Source: Candidatus Lindowbacteria bacterium RIFCSPLOWO2_12_FULL_62_27
GTDB lineage: Bacteria > Lindowbacteria > 2-12-FULL-62-27
Assembly: GCA_001784175.1 (NCBI GenBank)
Contig: MFPR01000017.1
Coordinates: forward strand, 29,024 to 93,023
Direction: 5' to 3'
Length of the DNA stretch: 64,000 nt
Shown here in pieces: positions 20,388 to 36,225 of the stretch. Position 1 is the stretch's first letter. Each line of letters starts with the position of its first letter. The position numbers were made by a program, and so were the translations under genes. A model generated the notes under the pieces. The model had not been told where the DNA came from. It saw only the letters and a list, made by a program, of their open reading frames with translations, and did no database searches.

Positions 20388-20440
20388 TTTCAATCTCCTC
20401 CCCCCTTGCGGGGGAGGCTGGGTGGGGGGTCGAGGACAAC

Positions 20441-21856
20441 ATGTCTGACATCGTCAACAAACTCTGGGGCTTTTGCCACACCCTCCGCCACGATGGCATC
20501 GATTACGGCGACTACATCGAACAGCTCACGTATCTGCTCTTCCTCAAAATGGCCGACGAACGCGAGGTCGTCATTCCCAAGGGCTTCGACTGGAATAGCC
20601 TCAAGACACGCTCCGGCACCGACTTGACCGACCACTACGCCGAAATCCTCCGAAAACTGCGCGAGGAAAAGGGACTGCTCGGCGACATCTTCGCCCAGTC
20701 CATGCCCCGGTTCAATAATCCCGTCAATCTCAAACGCCTCGTCACCATGATCGACGAGGAACACTGGTCGGCGATGGATGTCGACGTGAAAGGCGCCTGT
20801 TTCGAGGGACTGCTCGAGAAGGCGGCCAGCGAAGGCAAGAAAGGCGCCGGGCAATATTTCACGCCGCGCGTGCTCATTCAGTCGGTTGTCCGCGTCATGA
20901 AACCCGACCCGCGCGCCCGGACGGATTTCACCCTCTGCGACCCCGCCTGCGGCAGCGGTGGATTTCTCATGTCCGCCTATGAATGGCTCATGGGCGTCAC
21001 GAAAGGCGCGCTGGAGCGCGGCGAGATCAAACGCATCAAGACCAAGACCTACTTCGGCCAGGACCTCGTCCCGCGTCCCCGTCGCCTCGCGCTCATGAAT
21101 CTATATCTCCACGGCATCGTCCCAAAAATTTATCTCGGCGATGCCATCTATGAGCCCGATCGCGGCGAACTCTATGACTGCGTCCTCACCAACCCGCCCT
21201 TCGGCACCAAAGGCGCCAATCAAGCCCCTGACCGCGAGGATTTCACAATCGAGACCAGCAACAAACAGCTCAACTTTGTCCAGCACGTCGTGAACATCCT
21301 CAAAGACGGCGGCCGCGCCGCGATGGTTCTGCCGGACAACTGTCTCTTCGAAGGCAAAGCCGGCGAGGTCTTCAAGATTCTGATGCAGGACTGCAACCTC
21401 CACACGGTCCTGCGCCTGCCGCGCGGCACCTTCACGCCCTACAGTCAGGGCGTCAAAGCCAACGTCGTCTTTTTCCAAAAAGGCGTGAAGACCGAACACG
21501 TCTGGATTTTCGACGCCCGATCCAACGTCCCCGGCATCACCAAAAAAGACCGCCCCCTCGCCCGCGCGCACTTCGAGGAATTCGAAAAATGCTACGGCAA
21601 AGATCCCAACGGCCAGAGCAAACGCGAGGACACCGGCGAGTCGGGCCGGTTCCGCAAGTTCCACATCAGCGACATCGAAAACCGCGACTACAAACTCGAC
21701 ATCACCTGGCTCAAGGACGATTCCCTCGAAGACGCCGACGACCTCCCCGCCCCGGAAGAACTGGCCGCCGAAGCCATCACCGAACTCGAAGCCGCTGTGG
21801 ATGAACTCAAGGCAATCGTGGCACTTGTGGAAAATAATGAGGGCGTTGAGAAATGA
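20441..21856 (+). CDS. hsdM: type I restriction-modification N6-adenine DNA methyltransferase
   Basis: AdoMet motif DPACGSGGFL and catalytic NPPFG; N-terminus MSDIVNKLW typical of HsdM; ORF-track GTG at 20384 overlaps the hsdR stop. Confidence 0.9.
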   Translation: MSDIVNKLWGFCHTLRHDGIDYGDYIEQLTYLLFLKMADEREVVIPKGFDWNSLKTRSGTDLTDHYAEILRKLREEKGLLGDIFAQSMPRFNNPVNLKRLVTMIDEEHWSAMDVDVKGACFEGLLEKAASEGKKGAGQYFTPRVLIQSVVRVMKPDPRARTDFTLCDPACGSGGFLMSAYEWLMGVTKGALERGEIKRIKTKTYFGQDLVPRPRRLALMNLYLHGIVPKIYLGDAIYEPDRGELYDCVLTNPPFGTKGANQAPDREDFTIETSNKQLNFVQHVVNILKDGGRAAMVLPDNCLFEGKAGEVFKILMQDCNLHTVLRLPRGTFTPYSQGVKANVVFFQKGVKTEHVWIFDARSNVPGITKKDRPLARAHFEEFEKCYGKDPNGQSKREDTGESGRFRKFHISDIENRDYKLDITWLKDDSLEDADDLPAPEELAAEAITELEAAVDELKAIVALVENNEGVEK

Positions 21857-23358
21857 CCGACGAAATCCCGCTAGGGTGGACAAAAGCTCATATCTCCGAG
21901 ATATGTGATGTGTCGAAGGAACGCGGACGTGAGGGAATTACACCGTACCTCGAGATAGGGAACGTCGATATTGTGTCCAAGCGATACATGTTCACTGACA
22001 AGCTTTCGGTTAGAGGCTGTCAGATGGCGAAGCAAGATGATGTTCTTATTTCAAGGGTGAGACCAACCCGTGGGGCGATCGTTTGGATTCGTGAGAGCGA
22101 ATTGCACGTGTCTTCGGCTTTCACTGTACTGCGAGATTGTGGGACACTTTCAAAAAAATATCTTTGGTTATTTCTTGCTTGGAATCGTGCCTACCTCAAC
22201 CACCTTGGCGATAACTGCACTGGAACTATGTATCCGACCACTTCAGAGGATGCGATTACTGACTTTGATGTCCCTATCGCTCCACTTGCCGAGCAGAAGC
22301 GGATCGTCGAAAAACTGGACGCGGTGATGGCGCGGCTGGAGGCGTGCAAGTCCCGGCTGGCCCTCATCCCGCCCCTCCTCAAACGTTTCCGCCAATCCGT
22401 CCTCTCCGCCGCCTGCTCCGGGAAACTCACAGCCGATTGGCGCGAGCAAAATTTAATTATAGAAAATGCTGATGCTCTGCTCGACAGGATTAGAGAGAAG
22501 CGATTGGCATCAGCTCCGACCAAAAAAGAGAAGGCACGGATTGATGAAGTATTTGACGAGGGGAATCTGCGTATTGACGAGGGAGACCTTGGACTGGATG
22601 AGATTCCTGACACTTGGTTTGGCTGCCGCGTCGGCGCCGTTGGCGCGGTCTCCAACGGCAGCACGCCATCACGAAAGCGGCCGGATTTTTGGGGCGGAGC
22701 AATTCCGTGGGTCAGTTCGGGCGAAGTACGTAACAATATCATCTCGGCAACGCGCGAACGAATTACCAAAGCGGGCTACGAAGATAGTTCCGTGCGCCTC
22801 CTGCCCCGTGGCACCGTCCTGCTTGCCATGATTGGCGAGGGGAAAACCAGAGGGCAGACAGCCATCCTCCACATCGAGGCTACGATTAACCAGAACATCG
22901 CCGCCGTTGTTTTGGATCACGGTTTGCTTAGCTCCGCATACTTGTGGCGATGGTTTCAACTGCAATACGAAGCAACGCGAGAACGAGGCAGCGGGTCCGG
23001 CCCGCAGGCGTTGAACTGTCAACGAGTCCGTGAACTGCCCTTTGTTCTGCCCCCGTTGCCCGAACAACACGAAATCGTCTGTCGAGTGGAGGCGTTGTTC
23101 GCGATTGCGGACAAGATCGCGGAGCGCTACAAAAACGCCAAAGCCAACGTGGACAAACTGGCCCAATCCATCCTCACCAAAGCCTTCCGCGGCGAACTCT
23201 TGCCGCAGGACCCCTCAGACGAACCAGCCTCCTTACTCCTTGAGCGCATCCGCACACAGCGCATCAGCCGGGAAGCGCAGCAGAGCACCTCGAAGAAATC
23301 TCATCGGAATGGAATCAAAAGAGTGGCAAGACAGATACATAAGACTTTGAAAATATGA
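21853..23358 (+). CDS. hsdS: type I restriction-modification specificity subunit
   Basis: 4-bp overlap with hsdM; two target-recognition-domain halves separated by a conserved helical spacer (LAEQKRIVEKLDAVMARLE and LPEQHEIVCRVEALFAIADKI). Confidence 0.85.
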   Translation: MTDEIPLGWTKAHISEICDVSKERGREGITPYLEIGNVDIVSKRYMFTDKLSVRGCQMAKQDDVLISRVRPTRGAIVWIRESELHVSSAFTVLRDCGTLSKKYLWLFLAWNRAYLNHLGDNCTGTMYPTTSEDAITDFDVPIAPLAEQKRIVEKLDAVMARLEACKSRLALIPPLLKRFRQSVLSAACSGKLTADWREQNLIIENADALLDRIREKRLASAPTKKEKARIDEVFDEGNLRIDEGDLGLDEIPDTWFGCRVGAVGAVSNGSTPSRKRPDFWGGAIPWVSSGEVRNNIISATRERITKAGYEDSSVRLLPRGTVLLAMIGEGKTRGQTAILHIEATINQNIAAVVLDHGLLSSAYLWRWFQLQYEATRERGSGSGPQALNCQRVRELPFVLPPLPEQHEIVCRVEALFAIADKIAERYKNAKANVDKLAQSILTKAFRGELLPQDPSDEPASLLLERIRTQRISREAQQSTSKKSHRNGIKRVARQIHKTLKI

Positions 23359-23518
23359 ACATTACGCAATTGGCCTTTTATCTGAGTCTCACTCGTCGTC
23401 TCATTGGCACAACTACCATCCTTTCAACTGATTATGCTATTTTATTACATATACCTTGCCATTTGTTAAGTTTTATATTAGCAATGTCGATAGATGAAAT
23501 TAAGCGCCGGGTGGCCAT

Positions 23519-23893
23519 TTGAATACCACGGTTCTGCATGTTGGCGAAAAGTTGAAGGTCGAGGCGGTGCTCAATCCCGACGGAAAATGTCCGGCGCAGG
23601 AATTTTTGGATGAGCAGTTGGAAAGTGACAGGCAGAAAATCAAGGCCTTATTTTTCATGGTTGCTCTCAAGGGCAATCAGTTTCGAAACGGGGAGAAATT
23701 CAAGAAGCTCGATGGCGAAATTTTCGAATTCAAGAGTTATCAAATTCGCCTCCTCTGTTTCTTTCACAGAGGCGGCAGGTTGATCATCACTCACGGACTC
23801 ATCAAACAGACGGATAACATGCGAAGAGGGGAAATCGAGAAGGCGGAGCGAATCCGCCAACAGTTTCTTGCGGAGGAGGTTTCCCATGGCTGA
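23519..23893 (+). CDS. higB: HigB/RelE-superfamily toxin (Gp49-like)
   Basis: EFKSYQIRLLCFFHRGGRLIITHGLIKQTD resembles the Gp49-like/HigB fold; overlaps the downstream HTH gene. Confidence 0.55.
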   Translation: MNTTVLHVGEKLKVEAVLNPDGKCPAQEFLDEQLESDRQKIKALFFMVALKGNQFRNGEKFKKLDGEIFEFKSYQIRLLCFFHRGGRLIITHGLIKQTDNMRRGEIEKAERIRQQFLAEEVSHG

Positions 23894-24284
23894 AGAAACG
23901 TGGTTTGAAAAGCATCACAAAACCGACGAGGAGAAGCGGCTGTTCGCGCAGGAAGTCGCCATTCTGTCCGCGCTTGAAGAAGTCTGCCGGGTGATGGAAA
24001 CGGAAAACGTCTCCCGGGCGGACATGGCGACCAAACTCGGAAAAAGCCGGGCGTTTGTAACCCAGGTGCTGCGCGGCAGCAACAACATCACGATTCGTAC
24101 GCTCGCCGATTTCGCATGGGCCTGCGGCCGCACCGTCGATATCCGACTTCGCAAAGGCGCCGGACATAACTTCGAGCCGACCGTGTATGCCGAGTGGAAA
24201 GAGTCGGCGGAAACGCAGGCGACGGTCAACCCGTCGGGACCGGCTCAACAAGTAGAAGATTTGGAATCGTCGCTGGCAGGATGA
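23886..24284 (+). CDS. higA: HigA-like HTH antitoxin with C-terminal extension
   Basis: HTH MATKLGKSRAFVTQVLRGSNNITIRTLADFA; aromatic-containing C-terminal tail (EPTVYAEWKES) compatible with a chaperone-addiction region; 8-bp overlap with toxin gene. Confidence 0.55.
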   Translation: MAEETWFEKHHKTDEEKRLFAQEVAILSALEEVCRVMETENVSRADMATKLGKSRAFVTQVLRGSNNITIRTLADFAWACGRTVDIRLRKGAGHNFEPTVYAEWKESAETQATVNPSGPAQQVEDLESSLAG

Positions 24285-24754
24285 CGCCGGAACTCAAAAC
24301 GGCGGCCAAGGTTGCCGCCGTCTCACAGATTCAGAACGTCCGATTGACGTTTGTGCACTCCGATCTGCAACCCGGATTCGAAAAAGTTCTAAACGGAAAA
24401 TCCGAGATTCAGATTGACCACCGGATGACGGAATATATCGTTCGTGAAGACGAACTCCAACTCATCCTCGAATTCAAACTAAAGATCGTTGTTGAATCCG
24501 CAGAGGAGAAGACCGCCCCTCAACCTGGGGAAACTTCCACTCCGCCTCTCGAAATCCACGCAAAATTCTGCGTTGACTACACGGTCAAAGATCTCAAGAC
24601 TTTTTCTGAACAGGACATTCAGGCCTTCGCAAAAATCAACGCCGTTTTCAATTCGTGGCCCTACTGGCGGGAAATCGTCCAATCCACATTTTGGCGCATG
24701 GGCCTGCCGCCGTTCGTCATCCCCGTATTCCGGATGCCGCTGAAGTCAGATTAG
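24281..24754 (+). CDS. SecB-like chaperone of a TAC system
   Basis: AFAKINAVFNSWPYWREIVQSTFWRMGLPPFVIPVF parallels the SecB C-terminal conserved region; ATGA overlap with higA-like stop. Confidence 0.6.
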   Translation: MTPELKTAAKVAAVSQIQNVRLTFVHSDLQPGFEKVLNGKSEIQIDHRMTEYIVREDELQLILEFKLKIVVESAEEKTAPQPGETSTPPLEIHAKFCVDYTVKDLKTFSEQDIQAFAKINAVFNSWPYWREIVQSTFWRMGLPPFVIPVFRMPLKSD

Positions 24755-24767
24755 GCCGGCATTTCAT

Positions 24768-25592
24768 TCACACCTGCTCGACGCTAAACCCCTGCTTGAA
24801 TCTGACTGTCTTGCCGCACTTCGCACAACCCGCCGTCGCGCCATTCAGCACACGGTGCTTTCCGACAAAATTCTCCGCATCGCATGATGGGCACGGGTAT
24901 TTGACCTGCCGGAGGTGGACAATTATTTCATTGCCTTTGCCGGGTTCTACGTCGTAAACCGCTTGGCAGTTGGTGATGGGACACTTCACTCCCCCTTCGG
25001 CTGTGAAACTGCCGGCGCGACGCTGTATCTGCTCTCCGCAGTCTTGGCACTGAAACTCGAAAAACTGTCCGAAATTAACCCTGAAAATCGGCGACGTCAA
25101 AATTGCCTCGCACTCATCGGCAACGGCCGCCGCCCGCTTGATCATTCCAGCCAGATTGGAAGTTTTGCCGGACTCGATCTGGTGGATCGTTAGAGCGTGG
25201 AGAAAATTCCCCAGCGCGTTGTGGTTATCGTTGGCCCACTTCCGCGAAAACCTTCTGTCCTGCCCCAGCATCTGCATTTCCTCGCCCGGTGGCGGGACAC
25301 CGTACGTGTGTTCGATCCCAACCGCCAAGCTGACGCTCTGGTCGGCATGCGGGTCAACTTCGCGCATCTCTGAAATTACGTGTCTGGGCTGCCACTTCTT
25401 GAGCGCATCATTTGGAACTTCTTTCAGGTACGCCAGCAGTTGATCATAGGTGATGTACTCAATCGTGAGACGCAACTCGAGGCAGGCATACCGGACAGAA
25501 GGTTCATCGCCCTTTGCCAACAAATTCCTTGCACGAGCGAGACATTCGCGGGCCACGCATCGCATATCGGGCACGGTTATCGTCGCCGTCAT
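24768..25592 (-). CDS. hypothetical protein with C-terminal multi-zinc-ribbon region
   Basis: Helical N-terminal half; C-terminal CQDCGEQ, CPITNC, CPSCDAEN, CAKCGK cysteine pairs. Confidence 0.5.
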   Translation of the reverse strand: MTATITVPDMRCVARECLARARNLLAKGDEPSVRYACLELRLTIEYITYDQLLAYLKEVPNDALKKWQPRHVISEMREVDPHADQSVSLAVGIEHTYGVPPPGEEMQMLGQDRRFSRKWANDNHNALGNFLHALTIHQIESGKTSNLAGMIKRAAAVADECEAILTSPIFRVNFGQFFEFQCQDCGEQIQRRAGSFTAEGGVKCPITNCQAVYDVEPGKGNEIIVHLRQVKYPCPSCDAENFVGKHRVLNGATAGCAKCGKTVRFKQGFSVEQV

Positions 25593-26146
25593 TTTGCCCC
25601 TCCCCCGGTGGCGTGAGTTATTCTGCCTGTTTTCGGCGGCCCAAACCCACCGGCTTCATCCTTCTTCCGAATAATCTCCTCCTGGTCTTTCTTGGCCTGT
25701 TTTGCCGTGTGCTTATCGCCTCTTCTTGAAGCCTCACTTTCCTCAACGACTTTTCTGGAAAAGGCTTTATCCAAGTCTTCAAAATTCTTAGGAGTCATTT
25801 CGTATTCCTCCTTTAATTGTTCGTTGCAGGACGTGTCAAAGGCCGCCCGCAAGTCAGTTTCCTTATCCAGCCGTGAATCCTCGTCGCTATCGACGTGAAC
25901 ACAAATACAGTTGCCGCCATTCTTCTCAACACATGGCCATTTCTCGTGGGATGGGATCCTATCCGAGAGGGAATCGGTTTGGCCGATATAACGAGGCGTA
26001 TGTGTGCCTCCGTTCGATCCGACCACACGTTTGCTGAATATGTAGACAGCCCCGACATCTTTGAACCTCGTGTCTGTGGTATATGCTTGGAACTTGTACT
26101 CCGTGCCACTTCCTCCTGCAAAAGTAACGTCAGAAATTTTTGACAT
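25589..26146 (-). CDS. GIY-YIG-like nuclease-domain protein
   Basis: GAVYIFSKR ... PRYIGQTDSLSDRIPSH matches the GIY-(10-11)-YIG plus Arg pattern; 4-bp overlap with the downstream zinc-ribbon gene. Confidence 0.45.
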   Translation of the reverse strand: MSKISDVTFAGGSGTEYKFQAYTTDTRFKDVGAVYIFSKRVVGSNGGTHTPRYIGQTDSLSDRIPSHEKWPCVEKNGGNCICVHVDSDEDSRLDKETDLRAAFDTSCNEQLKEEYEMTPKNFEDLDKAFSRKVVEESEASRRGDKHTAKQAKKDQEEIIRKKDEAGGFGPPKTGRITHATGGGAK

Positions 26147-26438
26147 GTGAAACTCCTTCATTATCGAAGCCCGCGGCTGCCGGCGGTCCCAGCCACCGAG
26201 GTGCTCATTGTCATCAAGCTTATGTCGTCTGCAACGCGACGACGTTCTGACCGTTCACGTAAACGTGCGCAACCCGTCGACCATCTAAATCGATGGCCTT
26301 GCTGCACAAAAAAACACTCATCACAGGGGTCGTTTCCCCCCTCTCCTCGACTGGATTGCTCTTGCTGTACGGAAGGCCGCCATGCTAACGTCACTCTGGA
26401 CTAGTGAGGGACGGGGGCGGCCTGCCGGATGCGCAAGC

Positions 26439-26466
26439 GGACGGCGTCGTTACCGTCCTTTTTTAT
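26439..26466 (+). terminator. intrinsic-terminator-like hairpin followed by T-run
   Basis: GGACGG-cgtcgtta-CCGTCC followed by TTTTTTAT; no convincing + strand CDS upstream. Confidence 0.3.
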
Positions 26467-26522
26467 GGCTGTTTCACAATCTGAAAAACAAACACCATAA
26501 AAGCCGTATCATTCATCTGGAC

Positions 26523-26774
26523 TTACTTTCTCCTTCCACGCCTGCTGTGAATCAAGTCGTTCACAGACGCAAACCCGGTTTTCTGAAGAAGCGTTCCGAC
26601 ATGCATATCGTCCCGAACGCCGAAATCGCGGTTGTACTGTTTCTCCAATGTCGAAACGTGCTTGTCGTCACGCGTGTCCCGGAGCGGTCCGTTCGCATTC
26701 CGTGTCCGATAACCCCGCATTCCTGCTGCGTCTTTGGCCATATTCATCACCCCCTTTCTCTGCCGAATGTTCAA
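26523..26774 (-). CDS. small hypothetical protein, divergent from the ATPase operon
   Basis: 83-codon ORF, hydrophilic; coding status uncertain. Confidence 0.25.
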   Translation of the reverse strand: MNIRQRKGVMNMAKDAAGMRGYRTRNANGPLRDTRDDKHVSTLEKQYNRDFGVRDDMHVGTLLQKTGFASVNDLIHSRRGRRK

Positions 26775-26846
26775 TTATCTATATGTACCATATCTGTAAA
26801 AAAAATCAAGGTTTTAGATGATAATGTTATGGGTCACAAAAAAAGC

Positions 26847-26875
26847 TTGACAAAAACATGAATTTATCATAGAGT
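26847..26875 (+). promoter_or_regulatory. putative sigma70-type promoter for the ATPase-subtilase operon
   Basis: Consensus TTGACA at 26847-26852, 17-nt spacer, TAGAGT -10-like hexamer; preceded by an A7 tract. Confidence 0.2.
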
Positions 26876-26881
26876 CACAAT

Positions 26882-28012
26882 ATGAAAGGTCTTCCGTTTA
26901 TAGGCCAATTGGCCAAAATGTCACTGAAATCTCACAACCAAGAGGCCACCCCTTATGTGGAGGCGCTTATCCGTTTGGCCGAGGAAGAAGGGGATGTTAA
27001 ATCGGCCAAGAAACTGGCGGCAATCCTCGAAGATGCCCGAAAACGGGGATTTGTCGGGTCTAATTCGTCCTCGTCGCCCGGTGATCGATATCCGATGACA
27101 ACGTCTTCCGCGACAATGGAAATGCCTGTATCGATATCGAAATTCCTGGAAGACTCCCTGCCGGCGCCGCCGGAACGGCCGACTCTGGATGCTTCCGTAT
27201 CGCAAGGTATTCGAGATTATATTTTTCATGCTTCACATGGATTGAAGGAGAACATCTTTTTTGTCGGACCTTCGGGTACAGGCAAGACCTTGACGGCTGC
27301 ATGGCTTGCCGCACAATTGGAAAAGCCGTTGTATCGTCTGGCTTATCCTCGGGTCTTCGATAGTTATCTTGGCAGAACCGCTAGAAATCTGGTCGCGGCG
27401 TTCGAGGAGGTTAAACTCCTGGGTGGGATCCTTTTTATTGACGAGGTGGACGCCATTTTGAGGTCTCGGGAACTTACAGGCGACCACGGCGAGATGCAGC
27501 GGACGGTCAATGTGCTGCTCATGGAAATCGATAGAGCCCGCGATGAATTACCGATCTTTGCCGCGACCAATCTGTTCCATAAGGTGGATACGGCGGTGGC
27601 CAGACGATTTCATCTGATACTCCACTTCAATTTGCCCTCTGACTTTTTGCGCGAGCATTATGTTCGACTGAAGGTGAAACAATATATTCCTTCGTACCTG
27701 ATGACGTCTTTGATCAGGCTGACGGAAGGATTCTCCTACGCGGATTTGGAAAAGTTGCTTGGTTGCATGCCGGATTTCGATTTACCTCCGACCGCGTTTT
27801 GGCCGGAATTCTTGCGCGTTCTTTCACAAACGTCGCCACCCGCGACCGCTCAATCTATTTCAGAATTCGCGCATTCGCCATCCCCGATACAGGCGAGAAA
27901 GCTGATTGAATGGGGTGTGGAGAAACAAGTCGTCACTCAGATGTTTGGGATATCTTCTGCCCTTCTGACGAAATGGATTCAGGGAGAGAAGCTGGAGGTA
28001 GTCCATGGCTGA
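26882..28012 (+). CDS. AAA+ ATPase (IetA-like)
   Basis: Walker A GPSGTGKT, Walker B ILFIDEVD, sensor region AATNLFHKVD. Confidence 0.75.
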   Translation: MKGLPFIGQLAKMSLKSHNQEATPYVEALIRLAEEEGDVKSAKKLAAILEDARKRGFVGSNSSSSPGDRYPMTTSSATMEMPVSISKFLEDSLPAPPERPTLDASVSQGIRDYIFHASHGLKENIFFVGPSGTGKTLTAAWLAAQLEKPLYRLAYPRVFDSYLGRTARNLVAAFEEVKLLGGILFIDEVDAILRSRELTGDHGEMQRTVNVLLMEIDRARDELPIFAATNLFHKVDTAVARRFHLILHFNLPSDFLREHYVRLKVKQYIPSYLMTSLIRLTEGFSYADLEKLLGCMPDFDLPPTAFWPEFLRVLSQTSPPATAQSISEFAHSPSPIQARKLIEWGVEKQVVTQMFGISSALLTKWIQGEKLEVVHG

Positions 28013-30413
28013 CGAACCGGGTCGGCCGCGAAGCAGCATCCTCCGGGTTGATAAGCGGAAACAGAGGACGAAAGAGTTTACCGATAAGCGGACTGGGGGT
28101 GGGTATAAAAAGATTTTTCCGGATGTACAAGAACGCTTGACCTTCGTCGCCCATCAACTGGATATCGCCATCGACGATTACAAGTCCGCTTACGCCCTGA
28201 CGGAGTCATCCGCCCCGTACCTGGTATTTGAATTGCAGCCATCGGCCATCGCCAAATCTCACAGCGCCTTGGACGTGTTAAATGATTGCGGGCTCGAAGT
28301 CGTTGCCACTCGGACTCTGGAGGAGAAGATTGTGCATGGGGTCGAAGGGGCCTTTAAGCGGCTCGGGGGCGATTTGGTGATGGCCGCGAAAGATGCCCCG
28401 ACGGACGAACAACTCAAAAAATTGGATGCGGAAGATAAGGAGATTCGGAAGATAAAAAGGGAAGAAAAACGACTTGGAAAAGAAAGTGATGCCAAGAAAA
28501 CGGTTCACCGCTATCTGCCGGGTGGGAAGTTTTCATGGAACGAGGTGGCCCAGTTCTCAACGTTCCGGAATGTCGGGTTCATACGTCCTGAAGAGAAAAT
28601 GATGGTTCCGGCCAATTTCGAATCGGCGCCGGTCTTTGTCTCGACATTCCCGTTGTGTGACAGCGCAAACGACGACATCAGAATATGGATTACATGCATT
28701 GATAGCATCATCAAGAAATACAAAACGGGTATCCGTGTTTTACGCGCCAATAAGAAATTCATGGAAAATATACAGGAACACGCGTCGGGTTTGGAATGCG
28801 ATTGGAATTTTAAAGTGAATCGGGAATACAAATCCCATCAAAAATCCTTTGTGTTTCTGATTGAAAATGCGGGTGTCAAAGCGGTGCGTGAGTTGGCCGG
28901 GTGCGAGTTTGTGCGTACGGTGGCTTTGGGACATATCCAAACAGATGTGTTGCGCGCATCTTCAAAGTTGTCCATACCATCCCCGCCTGCGGCGATTCGA
29001 TCTTTGCCGGCGGCGGGGTTGGTGGACACGGGTATTGCATCTCCTTCAAAATTGGATCCCTATATCACTTTCCGTGGTGGAGAAAATACTATCCGCAATA
29101 AAAAAGTGTTTCATGCAACGGACGTGGCCTATCTCCTTGTCCACAATGGCGCCGCCACGCCTTGGAAACCGGACGTGGCCGGATTGCCGTGTGCCATCCG
29201 CGACGTGGCCAGAATTGATGGTGGAGACGTTGACGGGGATCAGCTGCGGGCGGCCATCTGGGAGGCAACCCGGGATTCGTCGGGGGATGGAACTGTGAAT
29301 TTTTCGGCATATGTGAACGAGGGGAGGCGGGCGAAGCCTACGCCGGAAGTCTCTGTGTTTGGTGAACTGTTGGATGATATGTCATTGGAGGCCGAAAATC
29401 TCATGATCGTTTGTTCCGCCGGTAATTCCGGATCGGTGGGAATGGATTCTCCCGCCGACGGAGTTCATGTGGTTTCCGTAGGTGCCTTTACCCGCACACC
29501 GCAAGGAAACTTTGTACGGTCGGATTACTCCTGTCACGGCGGCGGGATCGCGCACAATGCCAAGCCCACTTTTGTTGTACCTGTCCATGACTTGAATAAT
29601 AAGGATTCTACCTGGGATACACTCATTCCATCGGGTTCGCCTGGCACAAGTTTCGCTGCTCCGGTTGCCACGCGAGTTCACGCCGGCCTACGGCATCGTG
29701 GATATAATCGAGATGAAGCTTTGGCGCTGATGGTGCACCACGCAAAACATCCGGGGAAGGATGTTTATTACAAGCCATCGTCAAAAGAAATTGAGGAGTT
29801 TGGGTTTGGGGTGGTTCCTTCTATCAATGAATGCGACCCGCCGGATGGTTCGAGGATAACGTTGATCTACGATGTTCCCGTCAAACTCGGCAAATTTTAT
29901 GAATTGAGATTGCCGATACCGCAAGAGCTTTCGGATTATTCGGCATTTGCCCGTCTGACTGCATACACTCGCGCGCCATGCAGCCGAGAAATGGGTGAGG
30001 AATATGTTGCCGCCGAGGTTCCGACACATCTGAGAATGTATAAAAAAGAGGTCAAAAAGAATGGAGTGCCATATGTGGATTTGCCGCCGGAGCCGGTCGA
30101 CTGGAAAGCCCGATACGAGGAACATCGCATTAAATATGGATGGAAATGGGGCACGCTGAGGCGATATAGCAAGACCATCCGGTTCGGAAAATATAAAGAA
30201 TTTGCTCTAAGGATTGGTCCGGTTATATGGCGGAAATGGGTACCAGGGACTGTGAAAGGACAAGAAACAAAGGTGCAGTGTGTTCTTTCGTTTTATCCGC
30301 TTGAGGGCGAAGCACCGCCGTTTTTTGATTTCTTCCGCAGGGCGTTTGTTGCCGCGCAGGTGGAAGTGGAGGTTCCATTGGAGGTGCAAATCGAATTGGA
30401 AGGTGAAAGTTGA
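28005..30413 (+). CDS. S8 subtilisin-family serine peptidase with N-terminal non-catalytic region (IetS-like)
   Basis: Asp motif GLVDTGIASP, His region FHATDVAYLLV, Asn CSAGNSGS, Ser GTSFAAPVA; 8-bp overlap with the ATPase gene. Confidence 0.75.
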   Translation: MADEPGRPRSSILRVDKRKQRTKEFTDKRTGGGYKKIFPDVQERLTFVAHQLDIAIDDYKSAYALTESSAPYLVFELQPSAIAKSHSALDVLNDCGLEVVATRTLEEKIVHGVEGAFKRLGGDLVMAAKDAPTDEQLKKLDAEDKEIRKIKREEKRLGKESDAKKTVHRYLPGGKFSWNEVAQFSTFRNVGFIRPEEKMMVPANFESAPVFVSTFPLCDSANDDIRIWITCIDSIIKKYKTGIRVLRANKKFMENIQEHASGLECDWNFKVNREYKSHQKSFVFLIENAGVKAVRELAGCEFVRTVALGHIQTDVLRASSKLSIPSPPAAIRSLPAAGLVDTGIASPSKLDPYITFRGGENTIRNKKVFHATDVAYLLVHNGAATPWKPDVAGLPCAIRDVARIDGGDVDGDQLRAAIWEATRDSSGDGTVNFSAYVNEGRRAKPTPEVSVFGELLDDMSLEAENLMIVCSAGNSGSVGMDSPADGVHVVSVGAFTRTPQGNFVRSDYSCHGGGIAHNAKPTFVVPVHDLNNKDSTWDTLIPSGSPGTSFAAPVATRVHAGLRHRGYNRDEALALMVHHAKHPGKDVYYKPSSKEIEEFGFGVVPSINECDPPDGSRITLIYDVPVKLGKFYELRLPIPQELSDYSAFARLTAYTRAPCSREMGEEYVAAEVPTHLRMYKKEVKKNGVPYVDLPPEPVDWKARYEEHRIKYGWKWGTLRRYSKTIRFGKYKEFALRIGPVIWRKWVPGTVKGQETKVQCVLSFYPLEGEAPPFFDFFRRAFVAAQVEVEVPLEVQIELEGES

Positions 30414-31075
30414 TGTCCCGTATACTCTTGAACCTCCCCCCTCACGACCGCCCCCGCGAGAAATTCAAAGCCAAAGGCTCCGAATCCCTGTCCGACCAGG
30501 AGCTATTGGCCATCCTGCTTGGCAGCGGCACCAAAAAATCGGACGTTTTGAAAGTCGCCGAACATATACTCAAAGAGATCGACGGCTCTAAGAAAAAATG
30601 GAGGTTGGCGGATCTTCAGAAAATCGAAGGTGTCGGCGAAGCCAAGGCCATGCAGATTCTGGCTGCGATGGAGTTTGCCCGGCGCCGCATCCAGCCCGCC
30701 GGATTTAAAATCTCGTTCCCGGCTGACGTCGTCCCCCTCATTCGCCACTACGCCGACCGCAAACAAGAACATCTGATCTGCGTCACTCTGAACGGCGCAA
30801 ACGAAATCATCGCCACCCGCGTCGTTACGGTCGGCCTCGCCGACAAAATCCAAGTCCACCCCCGTGAACTCTTCGCCGACCCCCTGACCGACCGCGCCAC
30901 CGCCGTCATCATCGCCCACAATCATACCGGCTCGGACCTCATCCCGACCCGCGAAGACATCGAGACCACCCGCCGCCTCAAGGCCGCCGGCGAAACGATT
31001 GGCATCAAATTGCTCGACCACATCATATTCAACAAAACCGGCTATTACAGTTTTCTCGAGAAAGATAATTTGTGA
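30410..31075 (+). CDS. radC: RadC-like JAB/MPN domain protein
   Basis: N-terminal HhH-like LSDQELLAILLGSG and JAB motif AVIIAHNHTGSDLIPTREDIETTRRL; ATGA overlap with subtilase stop. Confidence 0.8.
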   Translation: MMSRILLNLPPHDRPREKFKAKGSESLSDQELLAILLGSGTKKSDVLKVAEHILKEIDGSKKKWRLADLQKIEGVGEAKAMQILAAMEFARRRIQPAGFKISFPADVVPLIRHYADRKQEHLICVTLNGANEIIATRVVTVGLADKIQVHPRELFADPLTDRATAVIIAHNHTGSDLIPTREDIETTRRLKAAGETIGIKLLDHIIFNKTGYYSFLEKDNL

Positions 31076-31088
31076 ATTGAGGTAATCC

Positions 31089-32723
31089 ATGGCCACCGGT
31101 CGCAATCAGCCGTGCCCCTGCGGAAGCGCAAGGAAATACAAGAGGTGTTGCGGCAATCCGCTAAAAATGTCGCTTAAGGGCATTCATCGCCCGACAGAAA
31201 GCCGCGTCGCGGACGGAATCGCCAAAGCGCTCGAACATCACAAGGCCTCTGAACTCATCCGATGTCAACAGCAGGGACTGGGCAAGCCGATCATCTCTAC
31301 AGAACATCAGGGCAGGCGCCTCGTGGCTGTTGGAAACAAAGTCTACCATTCGACCAAATTCAAAACATTCCCTGATTTTCTGTTCGCTTATGTAAAAGGC
31401 AAACTCGGTTCGGAGTGGGGCAATGCGGAGATCGTCAAGCCCCTGGAGGAGAGGCATATTATTCTGCAATGGTACAACGAGTATTACCTCTTCCAAAAAC
31501 GGCACTTCGACAAAGACCACGAAATCCAGTCTTTTCCGGCAACGGGTGTGGTCAATTGTTATCTCGGCCTTGCCTACAGTCTGTACTTGCTGGAGCACAA
31601 CGTCGAGCTCCAGGACCGTTTGCTCAAACGGCTAAAAGACTCGGCAAATTTCCAGGGAGCGTATTACGAATTAATCGTCGCAAACTGTCTGATTCGAGCC
31701 GGATTTGATTTGGTTCTCGAAGATGAAACCGATCGTGCCTCGAAGCATTGTGAATTTTCCGCCGTTTCACAGAAGACTGGAAAAAAATACTGGGTCGAAG
31801 CCAAGATGCGGGCGGTTTCCGGCATTCTCGGTAAATCCGACCATGACGGCACCCAATCGTTGGAACCGACTTCCTCGCTGATACAGCATGTGAACAAGGC
31901 GCTTGCAAAGCCGGCGGCGGATGAACGACTCATTTTCATCGATCTCAACACCGATCCGCCCGACGGGCAGAGTCTGCCGGATTGGATGGAACGAGCCGCA
32001 CAAAAACTTGAAGGCCTCGAAAAAACTTACCAAAAAGGGGAGCGCGCTTATATTTTTGTGACGAACATGGCGTTTCACCGGCGCTTGACGGACGCCCGCC
32101 CGGCTGGCGCCGTTTTGGTTCACGGATTTGGAATTCCCGATTTTGGAAGGCCGGGGGAATATCGGCTTACGGAAATTTACAGGAAAAGACAAAAACATAA
32201 GGATGCCTATCACATTTTTGAAGCCGTCAAAGAATATCCGAAATTTCCTTCGACGTTTGACGGTAGTTTGCCATCCGAAACCTTTGGTGATGGAGGTGGT
32301 CGCATTATTATTGGAGAAACGTATTTTTTTCCTGATATGGACGAGAAGGGAATTACAGGGACCGTCACTTCTGCCATGGTGAGTGAAACTGAAAAGACAG
32401 AACATTTGGGCATTACGACAAAAGATAACGGGTCATTTATTCTCAGCAGGCCGATGACAGAGGCGGAACTGACAGATTACAAAAACCATCCCGAGGCGTT
32501 TTTTGGTGTGATTCTTCAACCACCAGGGAACGCGAATGACCCGTACGAATTATTTGAATTTTTTGTTGGATGTTATAAAAACTCGTCTAAAGAGAAATTG
32601 CTAGAATTTTTAAAGGATTCGCAGGACACCGACTCCCTCGCGGCGTTGCCTCATATGGATTTGGTACTCGAATACTGCGAACGATTGGTCGCTGCCGCAG
32701 TGGCTGGCCAAGAAAACAGATGA
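31089..32723 (+). CDS. SEC-C-motif protein with PD-(D/E)xK-like core
   Basis: N-terminal NQPCPCGSARKYKRCCG; central FDLVLEDETD ... KYWVEAKM resembling a D-E-K nuclease triad. Confidence 0.55.
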   Translation: MATGRNQPCPCGSARKYKRCCGNPLKMSLKGIHRPTESRVADGIAKALEHHKASELIRCQQQGLGKPIISTEHQGRRLVAVGNKVYHSTKFKTFPDFLFAYVKGKLGSEWGNAEIVKPLEERHIILQWYNEYYLFQKRHFDKDHEIQSFPATGVVNCYLGLAYSLYLLEHNVELQDRLLKRLKDSANFQGAYYELIVANCLIRAGFDLVLEDETDRASKHCEFSAVSQKTGKKYWVEAKMRAVSGILGKSDHDGTQSLEPTSSLIQHVNKALAKPAADERLIFIDLNTDPPDGQSLPDWMERAAQKLEGLEKTYQKGERAYIFVTNMAFHRRLTDARPAGAVLVHGFGIPDFGRPGEYRLTEIYRKRQKHKDAYHIFEAVKEYPKFPSTFDGSLPSETFGDGGGRIIIGETYFFPDMDEKGITGTVTSAMVSETEKTEHLGITTKDNGSFILSRPMTEAELTDYKNHPEAFFGVILQPPGNANDPYELFEFFVGCYKNSSKEKLLEFLKDSQDTDSLAALPHMDLVLEYCERLVAAAVAGQENR

Positions 32724-32821
32724 TTTGGAATATTGGGATCCGGCCGGTGCGCAATTTGTGGACAACGCGCCGCCTTCTCTTTCACTGTCTCTCTTTCTAT
32801 ATCTCTCTTTCCCGTGCACTC

Positions 32822-32865
32822 TGTGTCACCATTCGCGGGCATCGTGTGTCACCATCTCGGTGACA
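32822..32865. repeat. two direct 11-bp repeats TGTGTCACCAT plus inverted GGTGACA forming a 7-bp palindrome
   Basis: Repeat copies at 32822-32832 and 32845-32855; inverted core at 32859-32865; preceded by a CT-rich tract 32775-32815. Confidence 0.5.
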
Positions 32866-32870
32866 GGGAG

Positions 32871-33248
32871 TCACATATCGGGGATTGTTGTGCACGGTTT
32901 TGGGGATAACGGCAGTTCGTCCTGGATGGCGAGGAGGGTGTAGGTGTTTGACCGCCGGCGGCGGCCTACGGACGGCGGGCTTCGTTTGATCGAGATGAGG
33001 CCGAGGTCGGCCAGTTGGCGGACGACGCGGATCACGTGGCGGCGCGAGAGGGCGAGCATCCGGGCGAGGGTGTCGTAGGAGGGGTGGCAGGAGCGGTGGT
33101 TGAAATCCGCGAACCGCGCCAGGGCCGCGTAGACGCCGACGCCGATGGCGCCGATTTCGGCGGCGTAGTTGTCGATTACGATGTGGTCGATGCGAAGCCA
33201 GTGGCCCGATGGGGCCCTGGGTTTGGGGTCCGGCATTGGGTCATCCAT
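32871..33248 (-). CDS. winged-helix DNA-binding protein
   Basis: SYDTLARMLALSRRHVIRVVRQLADLGLI wHTH-like segment. Confidence 0.4.
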   Translation of the reverse strand: MDDPMPDPKPRAPSGHWLRIDHIVIDNYAAEIGAIGVGVYAALARFADFNHRSCHPSYDTLARMLALSRRHVIRVVRQLADLGLISIKRSPPSVGRRRRSNTYTLLAIQDELPLSPKPCTTIPDM

Positions 33249-33260
33249 TTCTCCGCGCGA

Positions 33261-33521
33261 TCATTTGCCGGACGGCGGCCGGTAGGACTCGAAGATGAAG
33301 CGGTCGAGATCTTCCCGCCGGAATCTCCGGCTCTTGCCGATTTTGGAATAGGGCAGCCTGCCGCGCGCCACGAACGCGTCGAGGGCGTTCAGCGTCACCC
33401 GCAGATAACACGCCGCCTCCTTCGAACTCAGGTAGGGCGTGCTCGGCACCGGCACATCCGGCACCCGGCACCGGCTCTCGGTGCCGGCCTCTTTTTGCTC
33501 ATTATCCGTCGGGTGATCCAT
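33261..33521 (-). CDS. excisionase/AlpA-like HTH DNA-binding protein
   Basis: YLSSKEAACYLRVTLNALDAFVARGRLPYSKIGKSRRFRREDLDRFI matches the excisionase-type HTH. Confidence 0.5.
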   Translation of the reverse strand: MDHPTDNEQKEAGTESRCRVPDVPVPSTPYLSSKEAACYLRVTLNALDAFVARGRLPYSKIGKSRRFRREDLDRFIFESYRPPSGK

Positions 33522-33735
33522 GAATCAGTGTCCTTCCGCCTCTTCCGCGTCCTCGGACGCCTGAGTTGTATATCAGGAGAGATTATGTCTGTCAAGAAGC
33601 CATTATTGTTTTTAGAGTGATTATGTGGTATATAACACTGTCAGAAAGGATTGTATCTTTGTGAGAGAGCCGCTTGACAGAGGGGGTGGCCCATGTTGAA
33701 GTCGCCCGTAAGCGTATTTCCGAGGAGGTGGCCGG

Positions 33736-34152
33736 ATGGACAAATCGCTGGGAGAAGTGTTTCGAGAGCAGACGCATGCCAAGGACTTGACCGCGGAGGA
33801 TCTGGTCAAAAAAACGGGTGTCGGCACCCGTTCCCTGGTTTTCCAATTCTGGGCGGGCCGGACCTTTCCGCCGCTGCACAAGCTGATTTCGATGTTCAAC
33901 CTGGTTGGAATGGAATTCCACATATATGTCAACGGCCAGTTGCGAAAACTGAAACTGGACGGCCGGCGCGGTCTTTCTGACGCCGAGCGTGTGCTCGTCG
34001 GCGATCCCGGCGAAGTGGGCCTGCTGGATGGCCTGACGCCTTCCCAGGGAGAGGCGATTCTGGCGCAGGCGAATTTTTTCAGGGAATACAACGCCAGGAA
34101 GCAATCGGCGAAACCCGCCTCCGCCCGGCGTCGCGCGGACGCGGCGGCATAG
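33736..34152 (+). CDS. XRE-like HTH regulator
   Basis: LTAEDLVKKTGVGTRSLVFQFWAG HTH-like; GAGGAGG ribosome-binding site; divergent from the excisionase-like gene. Confidence 0.45.
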   Translation: MDKSLGEVFREQTHAKDLTAEDLVKKTGVGTRSLVFQFWAGRTFPPLHKLISMFNLVGMEFHIYVNGQLRKLKLDGRRGLSDAERVLVGDPGEVGLLDGLTPSQGEAILAQANFFREYNARKQSAKPASARRRADAAA

Positions 34153-34162
34153 GAGAAAGACC

Positions 34163-35335
34163 ATGCGCGTCAGGGTCATTCAACGAAAGGGCGCTTGGTG
34201 GATCGACTATTACTATCTGGACGAAACGGGCGCTTTGCGAAGAAAATACGAAAAGATCGGCCCGGGCAGGAAATTTGCGGAGACGGTGGCCGCCAAGCGC
34301 CGCGTGGAAATTCTGGAAGGAAAATTTCTGGACCGCCGTCGTTTCAAGCCCATCACGTTTGCGGACTTTATCCGGGAATTCGACGACAAGCACATGCGGT
34401 TTTTGAGAATTTACCGGCATGGCGGCAAGCAGTATCTCCGCCATCTGGTTTCCTTCTTTGGCGCAAGGCAACTCATGTCCATTTCGCAATTCGACGCCGC
34501 GCGGTTCAAGGTCCATTTCATGAGCCGGAAAACGCGCGCTGGAACCCCGCCGGCGAAATCGACCTTCAACCGGTATCTGTCGACTCTCATTTGCATCATG
34601 AACAAAGCGGTCGAATGGGGACATCTCCCGCAAAATCCGCTGTCGCGGGTGAAGAAGGAGCGAGAGGACGAAAAGCCGATGCGAATTTTAACGGCCGCCG
34701 AAAAAGTACGTCTCCTCGAAGTCGCGCTGGAGGATGGCCAGGAAGCGCACTCGCTCATCACGTTGGCGCTCAACACAGGTCTTAGGCGTGGTGATCTTCT
34801 GCGTCTTCAAATGAACGCGGCCATGATGCGTGAGCGAGAAATCCATCTCACGATGCAAAAAACCCGCCACGCCATTCATGTGCCGCTCAACAGAGCCGCC
34901 GAGTCTGCGATCAAAGCGTTGAACCGGGGCGACGACGAATTGTTATTCCCACCGAGGCGCGCGGACTCGAAAGACTCGCGCTGGCACTATGCATTGTGGC
35001 TAAAACTTGCAAATAGGGCCCAACTTCGTTATTGTCGTTTCCATGATTTGCGTCACACCTTCGCCACGGATCTTTTGCGGCGGGGCGTGAACATCAAAGT
35101 GGTCAAGGAGCTCCTGGGTCACCGGTCGATCCAAACGACAATGCGATATTTGCATTTCGTGGAGATCGACCGAAGGGCCGCGGTGGACACGCTGGAACCC
35201 GCCGCCGACGCCCGTGAGCCCCGTATGGCCCGGCAGTTTCCAATGCCAACGAATGCCGACTTACAGAACGCAACTGGAAACCTACTGGAGACCAAATGGA
35301 GACCAGAACGTCAAGTCGAGGAAGCGATCGCATGA
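34163..35335 (+). CDS. int: tyrosine-type site-specific recombinase/integrase
   Basis: C-terminal catalytic region HDLRHTFATDLLRRGVNIKVVKELLGHRSIQTTMRYLH with R, H-x-x-R and Y. Confidence 0.9.
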   Translation: MRVRVIQRKGAWWIDYYYLDETGALRRKYEKIGPGRKFAETVAAKRRVEILEGKFLDRRRFKPITFADFIREFDDKHMRFLRIYRHGGKQYLRHLVSFFGARQLMSISQFDAARFKVHFMSRKTRAGTPPAKSTFNRYLSTLICIMNKAVEWGHLPQNPLSRVKKEREDEKPMRILTAAEKVRLLEVALEDGQEAHSLITLALNTGLRRGDLLRLQMNAAMMREREIHLTMQKTRHAIHVPLNRAAESAIKALNRGDDELLFPPRRADSKDSRWHYALWLKLANRAQLRYCRFHDLRHTFATDLLRRGVNIKVVKELLGHRSIQTTMRYLHFVEIDRRAAVDTLEPAADAREPRMARQFPMPTNADLQNATGNLLETKWRPERQVEEAIA

Positions 35336-35380
35336 AAGTACATTCGCAATCCTCTATACATATTGGAGTACTGTAAACAC

Positions 35381-35464
35381 GGGGAGGTGCTCCAGTGGAC
35401 AACGAGAGCAGACTGTAAATCTGCCGCCCTTCGGGCTACGGAGGTTCGAATCCTCCCCTCCCCA
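35381..35464 (+). tRNA. tRNA-Tyr (anticodon GTA), class II with long variable arm
   Basis: Acceptor stem GGGGAGG/CCTCCCC, anticodon stem GCAGA/TCTGC with loop CTGTAAA, variable-arm hairpin GCCC-ttcg-GGGC, T-arm GGAGG-TTCGAAT-CCTCC, discriminator A; CCA not encoded. Confidence 0.8.
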
Positions 35465-35496
35465 TACATGGAGGTACAGGTCATGGGTCATGAGTC

Positions 35497-36225
35497 ATGA
35501 CTTCCAAGCCAGGGCTGTTTGAAACCTTTCTGTGCGTGCGCAGGCGTGCGCCATTTCTGGATTTTCATCTGATGAGGCTCAAGGGATCGGCCCGAAGGCT
35601 GCACATTCCTGTTGAGGCGGGGCTTGCCGCCGAGGTGTCGCGGCGTGTGGAGGCGCTCGGGTCGCATCCGCATCGCGGGCGGTTGGAGGTTTCGAGCGCG
35701 GGCGAGGTTCGATTGACATTTGCGGGGTATGACGCGCGCTTGATTTTTCGCAAAACGCCGATCGCCGAAAAACTTATTTCCCTTGCCGCGCCGCGCGGGT
35801 ATCCCGGCGCGTGGGCGGGGATGAAGACATTTCCGCGAATGCTCCTGGATCAGGCGCACGCCGAGGCAGGACGGCGGGGCGCGGCCGATGCGGTACTGGC
35901 GCGCCGATGGGTTTACGAAACGGCGCAGGGGAATTTGTTCTGGCTGAGGGGCGATGTCCTGCACACGCCGGCGGTCGGGCTGGGATGCCTTCCGGGAATT
36001 CTGCGGGGATGGGTGATCGGTGAGGCGCGGAGACTGGGCGTGAAGGTGCGCGAGGGCCGGTTTTCGCCGTCGAGCCTGACAGGCGCCGAGTCGATCTTCA
36101 GGACAAACGCGCTGATCGGCATTCGGTGGGTCCGTGAAATTGCGGGTCTTGGCCGGTGGCGCCGGCCCGTTCATCCGCTGGTCATGGAACTTTACCGGCG
36201 GTGGTGTGATAAGATCCGGTCATGA
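35497..36225 (+). CDS. pabC: class IV aminotransferase-fold protein, aminodeoxychorismate lyase-like
   Basis: Size and general similarity to PabC/class IV aminotransferases; overlaps ruvX start by 4 bp. Confidence 0.5.
   Translation: MTSKPGLFETFLCVRRRAPFLDFHLMRLKGSARRLHIPVEAGLAAEVSRRVEALGSHPHRGRLEVSSAGEVRLTFAGYDARLIFRKTPIAEKLISLAAPRGYPGAWAGMKTFPRMLLDQAHAEAGRRGAADAVLARRWVYETAQGNLFWLRGDVLHTPAVGLGCLPGILRGWVIGEARRLGVKVREGRFSPSSLTGAESIFRTNALIGIRWVREIAGLGRWRRPVHPLVMELYRRWCDKIRS

Follow-up and report, generated by a model that had tools for sequence, protein, structure and literature searches.

A divergent IetAS pair followed by a RadC tail gene and a SEC-C/PD-(D/E)xK gene in a Lindowbacteria defence island, probably a lineage-specific mosaic

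Background

IetAS (IteA/IteS), a system for plasmid stabilisation and phage defence, is encoded by adjacent, overlapping genes for an AAA+ ATPase and an S8 subtilase of ~800 aa, and in its variant ietHAS a SNF2 helicase is added as a third gene, which was experimentally validated to be essential and to control toxicity (NAR 2026, PMC13069673). Here, a window of 64,000 nt from Candidatus Lindowbacteria bacterium RIFCSPLOWO2_12_FULL_62_27 (contig MFPR01000017.1, positions 29,024 to 93,023 of the forward strand) was analysed with respect to four consecutive genes at 26882–32723 (Table 1), encoding an IetA-like ATPase (gene 1), an IetS-like subtilase (gene 2), a RadC protein (gene 3), and a protein with a SEC-C motif and a PD-(D/E)xK core (gene 4), for which an initial annotation had suggested an extended, four-gene version of IetAS. 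The coordinates of all four open reading frames (ORFs) were reproduced in the ORF list, and the domains assigned to them (AAA, Peptidase_S8, UPF0758_N plus RadC, and SEC-C) were confirmed by Pfam. The locus is probably a co-transcribed mosaic, in which a divergent IetAS pair is joined by a RadC tail gene of promiscuous habit and by a SEC-C/PD-(D/E)xK nuclease gene that is normally solitary. Judging from the sequence comparisons given below, this mosaic is lineage-specific and does not represent a conserved four-gene immune system.

Genes 1 and 2 resemble IetAS in their adjacency and overlap, the size of the subtilase, the position in a defence island, the PADLOC IetA and IetS profiles as top matches, and the intact Walker motifs and Asp-His-Ser triad; they differ from it in scoring under the equivalog cut-offs, in forming an isolated clade, and in being followed by two extra co-oriented genes. 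With ietHAS the locus has in common that an IetAS operon carries an additional co-transcribed gene. The extra gene of ietHAS, however, is an SNF2/DrmD-like helicase, whereas those of the window encode a RadC JAB protein and a SEC-C/PD-(D/E)xK protein, without a helicase in the operon (the nearest one being hsdR of a separate type I restriction-modification (RM) operon, ~6.5 kb upstream), and are not conserved across IetAS lineages.

The closest described counterparts of the two extra genes are RadC/YicR and the stand-alone PD-(D/E)xK nucleases. The activity of RadC is left open in the literature, between a nuclease-like and a JAMM protease-like role, and RadC is tied there to antirestriction modules on mobile genetic elements (MGEs), namely RadC/ArdB moron modules and RadC-ArdC fusions; the known RadC-like proteins of MGEs are short and JAB-only and are encoded beside ArdB and CbtA/CbeA, or are fused to ArdC, DinG, or primase. 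Gene 3 shares with RadC/YicR (NF000642, TIGR00608) HhH and JAB domains scoring above the curated cut-offs and an intact JAMM motif, and differs in that its clade forms the coupled last gene of type I RM, toxin-antitoxin (TA), LexA/ImmA-like, and IetAS operons. At the sequence level, gene 4 belongs to none of the stand-alone PD-(D/E)xK nucleases considered (HamA/AbpA of Hachiman, NucC, Shedu SduA, CdiA-CT, McrC); it differs from them in having no partner helicase or cyclase and in its unique N-terminal SEC-C zinc knuckle and C-terminal beta-barrel. With regard to Hachiman, neither a DUF1837 nor a HamA match was obtained for gene 4, and no HamB helicase is adjacent.

Divergence and distribution of the IetAS pair

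Among defence families, gene 1 matched best to PADLOC IetA (6.3e-44) and gene 2 to PADLOC IetS (1.1e-39); gene 1 additionally matched Pfam AAA (3.5e-26) and phrog_3757 (3e-58), and gene 2 gave a partial match to Pfam Peptidase_S8. The equivalog level of NCBIfam was missed by both, with 138.1 bits vs a cut-off of 510 for IteA (NF042959) and 106.1 bits vs 900 for IteS (NF042956). Since these scores lie far under the cut-offs, genes 1 and 2 are, as far as the profiles tell, a divergent member of the IetA/IetS family and no ortholog of the characterised system, so that the family assignment made in the initial annotation stands in this weaker form. Identity of gene 1 to the bona fide IetA of a gammaproteobacterial metagenome-assembled genome (MAG; locus L038) was 30%, and most other IetS proteins were 18–32% identical to gene 2. 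The Walker A (GPSGTGKT) and Walker B (ILFIDEVD) motifs of gene 1 are intact, and in an alignment of gene 2 with 12 relatives (13 sequences, 18–78% identity), G343, H370, N432, S434, N474, and G547-T548-S549 were invariant and D341 nearly so, with the subtilase triad D341/H370/S549 and the oxyanion residue N474 all intact in gene 2. By motif, both proteins are predicted to be catalytically intact. In analogy to the characterised system (PMC13069673), toxicity would be exerted by IetS and restrained or regulated by the AAA+ ATPase IetA. Phage infection or plasmid loss would then free the protease.

Homologs of IetS were searched for with a word index and subsequently with HMMER, exhaustively over 1.84e9 representatives. 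The word-index search returned two matches in total, the identical protein and a relative of 77% identity (L090), and the exhaustive search added one further close cluster at 48% (P0123), with the rest at E-values of 1e-17 or weaker. The IetS lineage is very sparse, comprising three sampled members. The identical protein was found on 13 contigs, all of one Rifle groundwater population (the nine shown were 99.99–100% identical to the window), and the four-gene arrangement was seen in this population only. L090 encodes IetA, IetS, and RadC with the same stop/start overlap between the latter two as in the window; its nucleotide homology to the window (81%) ends exactly at the RadC stop codon, beyond which the sequence is unrelated and gene 4 absent. 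In P0123, an HsdR-like gene and AbiEi/AbiEii come after the AAA-S8 pair, and neither RadC nor gene 4 is present. Four plasmid-borne AAA-S8 pairs (Methylotuvimicrobium, Mycolicibacterium, Bradyrhizobium, and Dongshaea, the last being annotated as iteS) consist of the two genes only, and the genes downstream of them are unrelated.

The suggested extension by genes 3 and 4 is not borne out by these loci: across independent lineages the two genes are not kept downstream of IetAS. What was found of their co-occurrence is RadC behind IetAS in the 77% sister lineage only and, at L038 only, a gene 4 homolog near IetAS, non-adjacent to IetS and in a locus without RadC, while the set of four occurs nowhere outside the one population.

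Two loci, L086 and L087, were considered as natural indel variants without RadC and gene 4 and were rejected, as blastn showed them to be 100% identical to the window through RadC; the apparent absence of RadC is an artefact of the gene caller having chosen an ORF antisense to it. This antisense ORF of ~195–200 aa (30503–31105, minus strand in the window), which is called in public assemblies, is probably spurious. The contig of P0123 (JGI 3300071358) is a dense defence island with a Ser/Thr kinase, a Bub-type ubiquitin-like system (Multi_ubiq, ThiF/DUF6791, and BubE) upstream of IetAS, IetAS itself, the HsdR-like helicase, and AbiEi/AbiEii.

RadC as the tail gene of toxic operons

Gene 3 encodes a full-length RadC with the UPF0758_N/HhH domain (1.2e-21) and the JAB domain (Pfam RadC, 2.2e-34), exceeding the curated cut-offs of NF000642 (188.2 vs 180 bits) and TIGR00608 (169.2 vs 133.85 bits). 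Its JAMM motif (E119, H169-x-H171, S179, and D182) is intact, with E119, H169, H171, and D182 invariant in the clade. The GC content at third codon positions is 0.72 for RadC vs 0.55, 0.54, and 0.53 for genes 1, 2, and 4, i.e., RadC is compositionally foreign within the operon, and its dN/dS of 0.09–0.13 indicates strong purifying selection. Its closest relatives were found in three contexts, namely behind IetS (L090, 83% identity), behind a LexA-like S24 peptidase (P0273, 84%), and behind a complete hsdM-hsdS-hsdR operon (P0285, 67%), the last with a 4-nt overlap into RadC. As the RadC of L090 is nearer to the LexA-context RadC (dN 0.069) than to the RadC of the window (dN 0.100), the history of RadC does not follow that of IetAS. 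Identities of 60–84% between MAGs of several phyla, which are unusually high for RadC, suggest that the clade is horizontally mobile.

The genomic context of the clade was determined at 80 metagenome loci (L102–L181), of which 62 were distinct after de-duplication. The upstream gene was co-oriented in 56 of the 62 distinct loci (median gap 11.5 nt; 16 overlaps), and the upstream partners fell into 43 unrelated families, while tight coupling to the downstream gene was found in only 6 of 61 cases. RadC of this clade hence nearly always closes an operon, joined to it by a small gap or overlap, and the same was observed at L095–L101. Among 71 upstream proteins scanned before de-duplication, HsdR (~9) and HsdS (~7) were the most frequent, and further partners were AbiEii, YhcG-PDDEXK, HEPN, ParE, PemK/MazF, RloB, Fic, and ImmA/IrrE; defence and toxin genes predominate among the partners. 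A profile-HMM (hidden Markov model) screen of the 80 loci detected IetS at 0/80 and gene 4 at 0/80, and the plasmid collection contained no member of the clade at an identity of at least 60% (best 43%). No description of RadC as the coupled last gene of RM or TA operons was found in the searchable literature.

Within the mosaic, gene 3 would accordingly stand for a horizontally mobile RadC clade that is habitually joined to the 3′ ends of varied defence and TA operons, where it most likely assists toxic modules in general instead of belonging to IetAS specifically. It is plausible, if speculative, that this RadC works as a DNA-associated metallohydrolase by which such modules are tempered or their establishment is aided, which would fit both the partners (HsdR and diverse toxins) and the HhH plus JAMM architecture. 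A further step would be to regard the clade as a portable accessory that is translationally coupled 3′ to toxic defence and TA operons and performs one common service for all of them, with IetAS-RadC being a true three-component variant; this is possible, although on the whole doubtful. The service might then, speculatively, be a tempering of the restriction-alleviation-like or antitoxin-like kind that eases establishment after transfer. RadC has been without a function for decades, and its reproducible behaviour as a coupled last gene makes its role experimentally approachable; if the clade were indeed a portable accessory of toxic modules, RadC would finally gain a biological role. The tail-gene pattern is a more interesting lead than the four-gene locus itself.

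It is rather unlikely that IetA-IetS-RadC forms a genuine extended system in the manner of ietHAS, in which RadC tunes the toxicity of IetS or senses nucleic-acid cues and gene 4 is a passenger. The stop/start overlap common to the window and L090, the purifying selection on RadC, the preference of its clade for positions after toxic effectors (HsdR, AbiEii, MazF, ParE, HEPN, Fic), and the precedent of an accessory gene that controls IetAS toxicity (PMC13069673) would all be expected of such a system, but RadC is missing from the 48% relative and from every IetAS pair more distant than it, none of the 80 RadC-clade loci contains IetS, and the phylogeny and the foreign composition of RadC both depart from the IetAS context.

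A conserved element of ~45 nt (TAAATCAACTACGACATCAAATACCGCATGGGGCGGGAGAGTGAGGA) was observed directly after the RadC stop codon in L103, L104, L106, L118, L127, and L141, and ~95 nt downstream of RadC in L120, L134, and L135. It is 94–98% identical between most loci and 89–96% identical to the shifted copies; the sequence beyond it diverges fully, and the genes 5′ of RadC differ among the loci. The element, which is absent from the window, could be a terminator, a small RNA, or a recombination boundary.

Gene 4 and its family

Gene 4 begins with a SEC-C zinc motif (residues 5–23), followed by a helical domain, a predicted PD-(D/E)xK core at approximately residues 185–330 (E194, D215, E222, and E237-A-K239), and a C-terminal region of a beta-barrel and helices. 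The PD-(D/E)xK-like character noted in the initial annotation was recovered, as the conserved acidic/ExK motif lies on the expected alpha-beta-beta-beta-alpha-beta core, and the protein is a predicted nuclease. In Pfam, PADLOC, and NCBIfam the SEC-C motif was the sole match, and PHROG gave 0 matches; the family, which comprises more than 1300 full-length homologs with ~50–60% identity across phyla, all unannotated, is thus missing from these databases beyond its zinc motif. A specific description of a SEC-C/PD-(D/E)xK defence gene was not found in the literature.

Neighbourhoods of gene 4 homologs were inspected at 80 genome loci (L001–L080), where the presence of IetS and RadC was screened for by profile HMM (tblastn with the IetA and IetS of the window missed the IetS of L038). 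The homologs are usually solitary (median upstream gap 164 nt), with a co-oriented upstream gene within 50 nt in 10 of 66 cases, and no recurring neighbour family was detected at the 80 loci. Immediate neighbours were RM/GmrSD genes, integrases, resolvases, and HTH genes, together with genes of housekeeping function (e.g., RecA, DnaB, and GatB). A tyrosine integrase was located near the homolog at 7/80 loci (tblastn with the integrase of the window), and Pfam Phage_integrase was matched by 3 of 124 immediate neighbours. On a 20-kb Caballeronia plasmid, the homolog is solitary, flanked by an integrase on one side and a convergent type I RM operon on the other. In viral sequences, homologs were present on 3 of 2.9 million contigs, none of which carried IetA, IetS, or RadC. 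Because its strongly conserved members lie in variable, integrase- and RM-rich regions, the family may reasonably be considered a candidate for defence by a single gene or for a function in MGEs.

The screen detected RadC at 0/80 and IetS at 1/80 of these loci. The single case, L038, carries a bona fide IetA/IetS pair (PADLOC 6e-145 and 3e-294) and no RadC, and the 579 bp between IetS and the gene 4 homolog apparently encode an H-NS-like protein. The respective ORF (7194–7600) has a C-terminal ...WTGIGRSPKWV... motif, and its frame runs into the start of gene 4; a Cas3 HD/helicase fragment was additionally observed upstream, at 1166–2116 of L038.

Improbable, though not without points in its favour, is a service of genes 3 and/or 4 to the mobile island itself, in the form of establishment, anti-restriction, or recombination instead of host immunity. 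The antirestriction modules with RadC known from MGEs, the integrases often found near gene 4 homologs (including that of the Caballeronia plasmid), and the distance of ~1.4 kb between gene 4 of the window and the excisionase-like and integrase genes would agree with it. However, the RadC proteins of MGE moron modules are short and JAB-only, whereas gene 3 is full-length; neither gene is phage-typical, as seen for gene 4 from the lack of PHROG matches and the three viral contigs; and it is the defence operons themselves, not integrases, to which RadC is coupled. A single integrated system, in which ATPase, protease, JAB hydrolase, and nuclease act jointly, is very improbable, since despite the operon-like packing behind one promoter-like site and the gene 4 homolog near IetAS in L038, the full set occurs in one population only, the homology of L090 stops right after RadC, gene 4 stands alone at 79/80 loci and has RadC beside it at none, and L038 has the H-NS-like gene between IetS and gene 4 and lacks RadC.

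Operon structure and start sites

Exactly as initially annotated, genes 1 and 2 share 8 bp, and 13 nt separate the RadC stop codon from the start of gene 4; this gap contains a Shine-Dalgarno sequence (GAGGT) for gene 4. A weak site at 30999–31026 might give gene 4 a transcript of its own. The 4-bp overlap stated for genes 2 and 3 is probably wrong. It presupposes a TTG start at 30410 (221 aa), whereas with the ATG at 30413 (220 aa) the last base of the IetS stop codon TGA (30411–30413) is the first base of the RadC start codon (TGATG), giving an overlap of 1 nt. The ATG is the better start, as it is preceded by AAGGTGA and was picked by the gene callers on the identical contigs and in L090. 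The start of IetA is supported by its N-terminus being in register with the IetA profiles of PADLOC and phrog_3757, residue 7 aligning with position 7.

The annotated TTGACA element is present as part of TTGACA-17-TAGAGT (10/12 matches to the sigma-70 consensus), which received the top promoter-like score in the region; the promoter scan of the region as a whole was not enriched over shuffles (8 sites vs 5.6 ± 2.4 expected). The −10 element ends 6 nt 5′ of the IetA ATG, where no Shine-Dalgarno sequence is present, while genes 3 and 4 have clear ones. This short distance and the missing Shine-Dalgarno sequence suggest that the mRNA is probably leaderless at gene 1. An Rfam scan of 23000–36000 matched tRNA-Tyr alone.

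Interpretation as a mosaic

Taken together, the modules of the proposed mosaic would have come to lie in an integrase- and tRNA-Tyr-associated defence island, in which gene 4, placed 13 nt behind RadC and equipped with its own ribosome-binding site, most likely encodes an independent, predicted DNA nuclease. Several observations count against this interpretation. The packing is that of a functional operon (8-bp and 1-nt overlaps, a 13-nt gap, and a single strong promoter-like site), and no terminator-like sites were predicted in the junctions between the genes. That an accessory gene of an IetAS operon can have a function was validated for ietHAS (PMC13069673). IetAS and RadC have stayed linked although the window and L090 differ by ~20% at the nucleotide level, and RadC is under purifying selection. 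As the IetS lineage has three sampled members, the non-conservation rests on few genomes. Finally, the gene 4 homolog 579 bp 3′ of the independent IetAS pair in L038 is above random expectation, a proximity that can be explained by the clustering of defence genes in islands.

With the four-gene candidate failing, cloning effort on a chance juxtaposition is spared. What is left of the locus is a member, catalytically intact by motif, of a very sparsely sampled IetAS clade.

Genomic context of the island

Features of the locus and its surroundings are compiled in Table 1. The type I RM system that had been annotated in the island was confirmed as hsdR/M/S. The toxin-antitoxin-chaperone module likewise annotated there was retained in part: its toxin is Gp49/HigB-like (5.6e-09) and an HTH_3 antitoxin was detected below the Pfam cut-off, but its third gene matched neither SecB nor any other Pfam family and is at most a putative chaperone gene. 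The 274-aa protein gave only weak matches to CoiA_N, Zn_ribbon_8, and Lar restriction alleviation (E 0.04).

Table 1 Features of the four-gene locus and of the surrounding island (positions within the window)
Feature	Position	Strand	Basis or remark
Gene 1, IetA-like AAA+ ATPase, 376 aa	26882..28012	+	ORF list, Pfam, PADLOC, NCBIfam
Gene 2, IetS-like S8 subtilase, 802 aa	28005..30413	+	Pfam, PADLOC, NCBIfam
Gene 3, full-length RadC, 220 aa from ATG	30413..31075	+	Pfam, NCBIfam, junction sequence
Gene 4, SEC-C + PD-(D/E)xK protein, 544 aa	31089..32723	+	
Sigma-70-like promoter, TTGACA-17 nt-TAGAGT	26847..26875	+	10/12 match; function inferred
hsdR/M/S, type I RM	17703-23358		
Gp49/HigB-like toxin, HTH_3 protein, and 157-aa third gene	23519-24754		Pfam
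274-aa protein, weak zinc-ribbon-type matches	24768-25592	-	
185-190-aa gene paired with the 274-aa gene	25589-26161	-	
159-aa ORF overlapping the 83-aa gene, probably spurious	26382-26861	+	called in public assemblies
Small divergent gene, 83 aa, good Shine-Dalgarno sequence	26523..26774	-	no Pfam match
Two convergent HTH genes: HTH_36, 125 aa; HTH_17, excisionase-like, 86 aa	32871..33521	-	
Tyrosine integrase	34163-35335	+	
tRNA-Tyr, island edge marker	35381-35464	+	

The two convergent HTH genes bound the operon on its 3′ side, and the integrase is located 5′ of tRNA-Tyr. GC content is 44–60% in the left 36 kb vs ~62–69% in the right flank (about 65% beyond 36 kb); past the edge marked by the integrase and tRNA-Tyr it increases from ~50–58% to ~65%. 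A search of positions 1–36500 of the window for att-type direct repeats of tRNA-Tyr detected none of at least 18 nt; the island might extend past the window at its far end, or the region might have been built up by several insertions. The 83-aa gene, which might encode a regulator, has a homolog of 59% identity in L177 (3761–4030, minus strand) that is likewise divergent from a RadC-tailed operon, there consisting of an HTH-ImmA/IrrE fusion, a 169-aa protein, and RadC.

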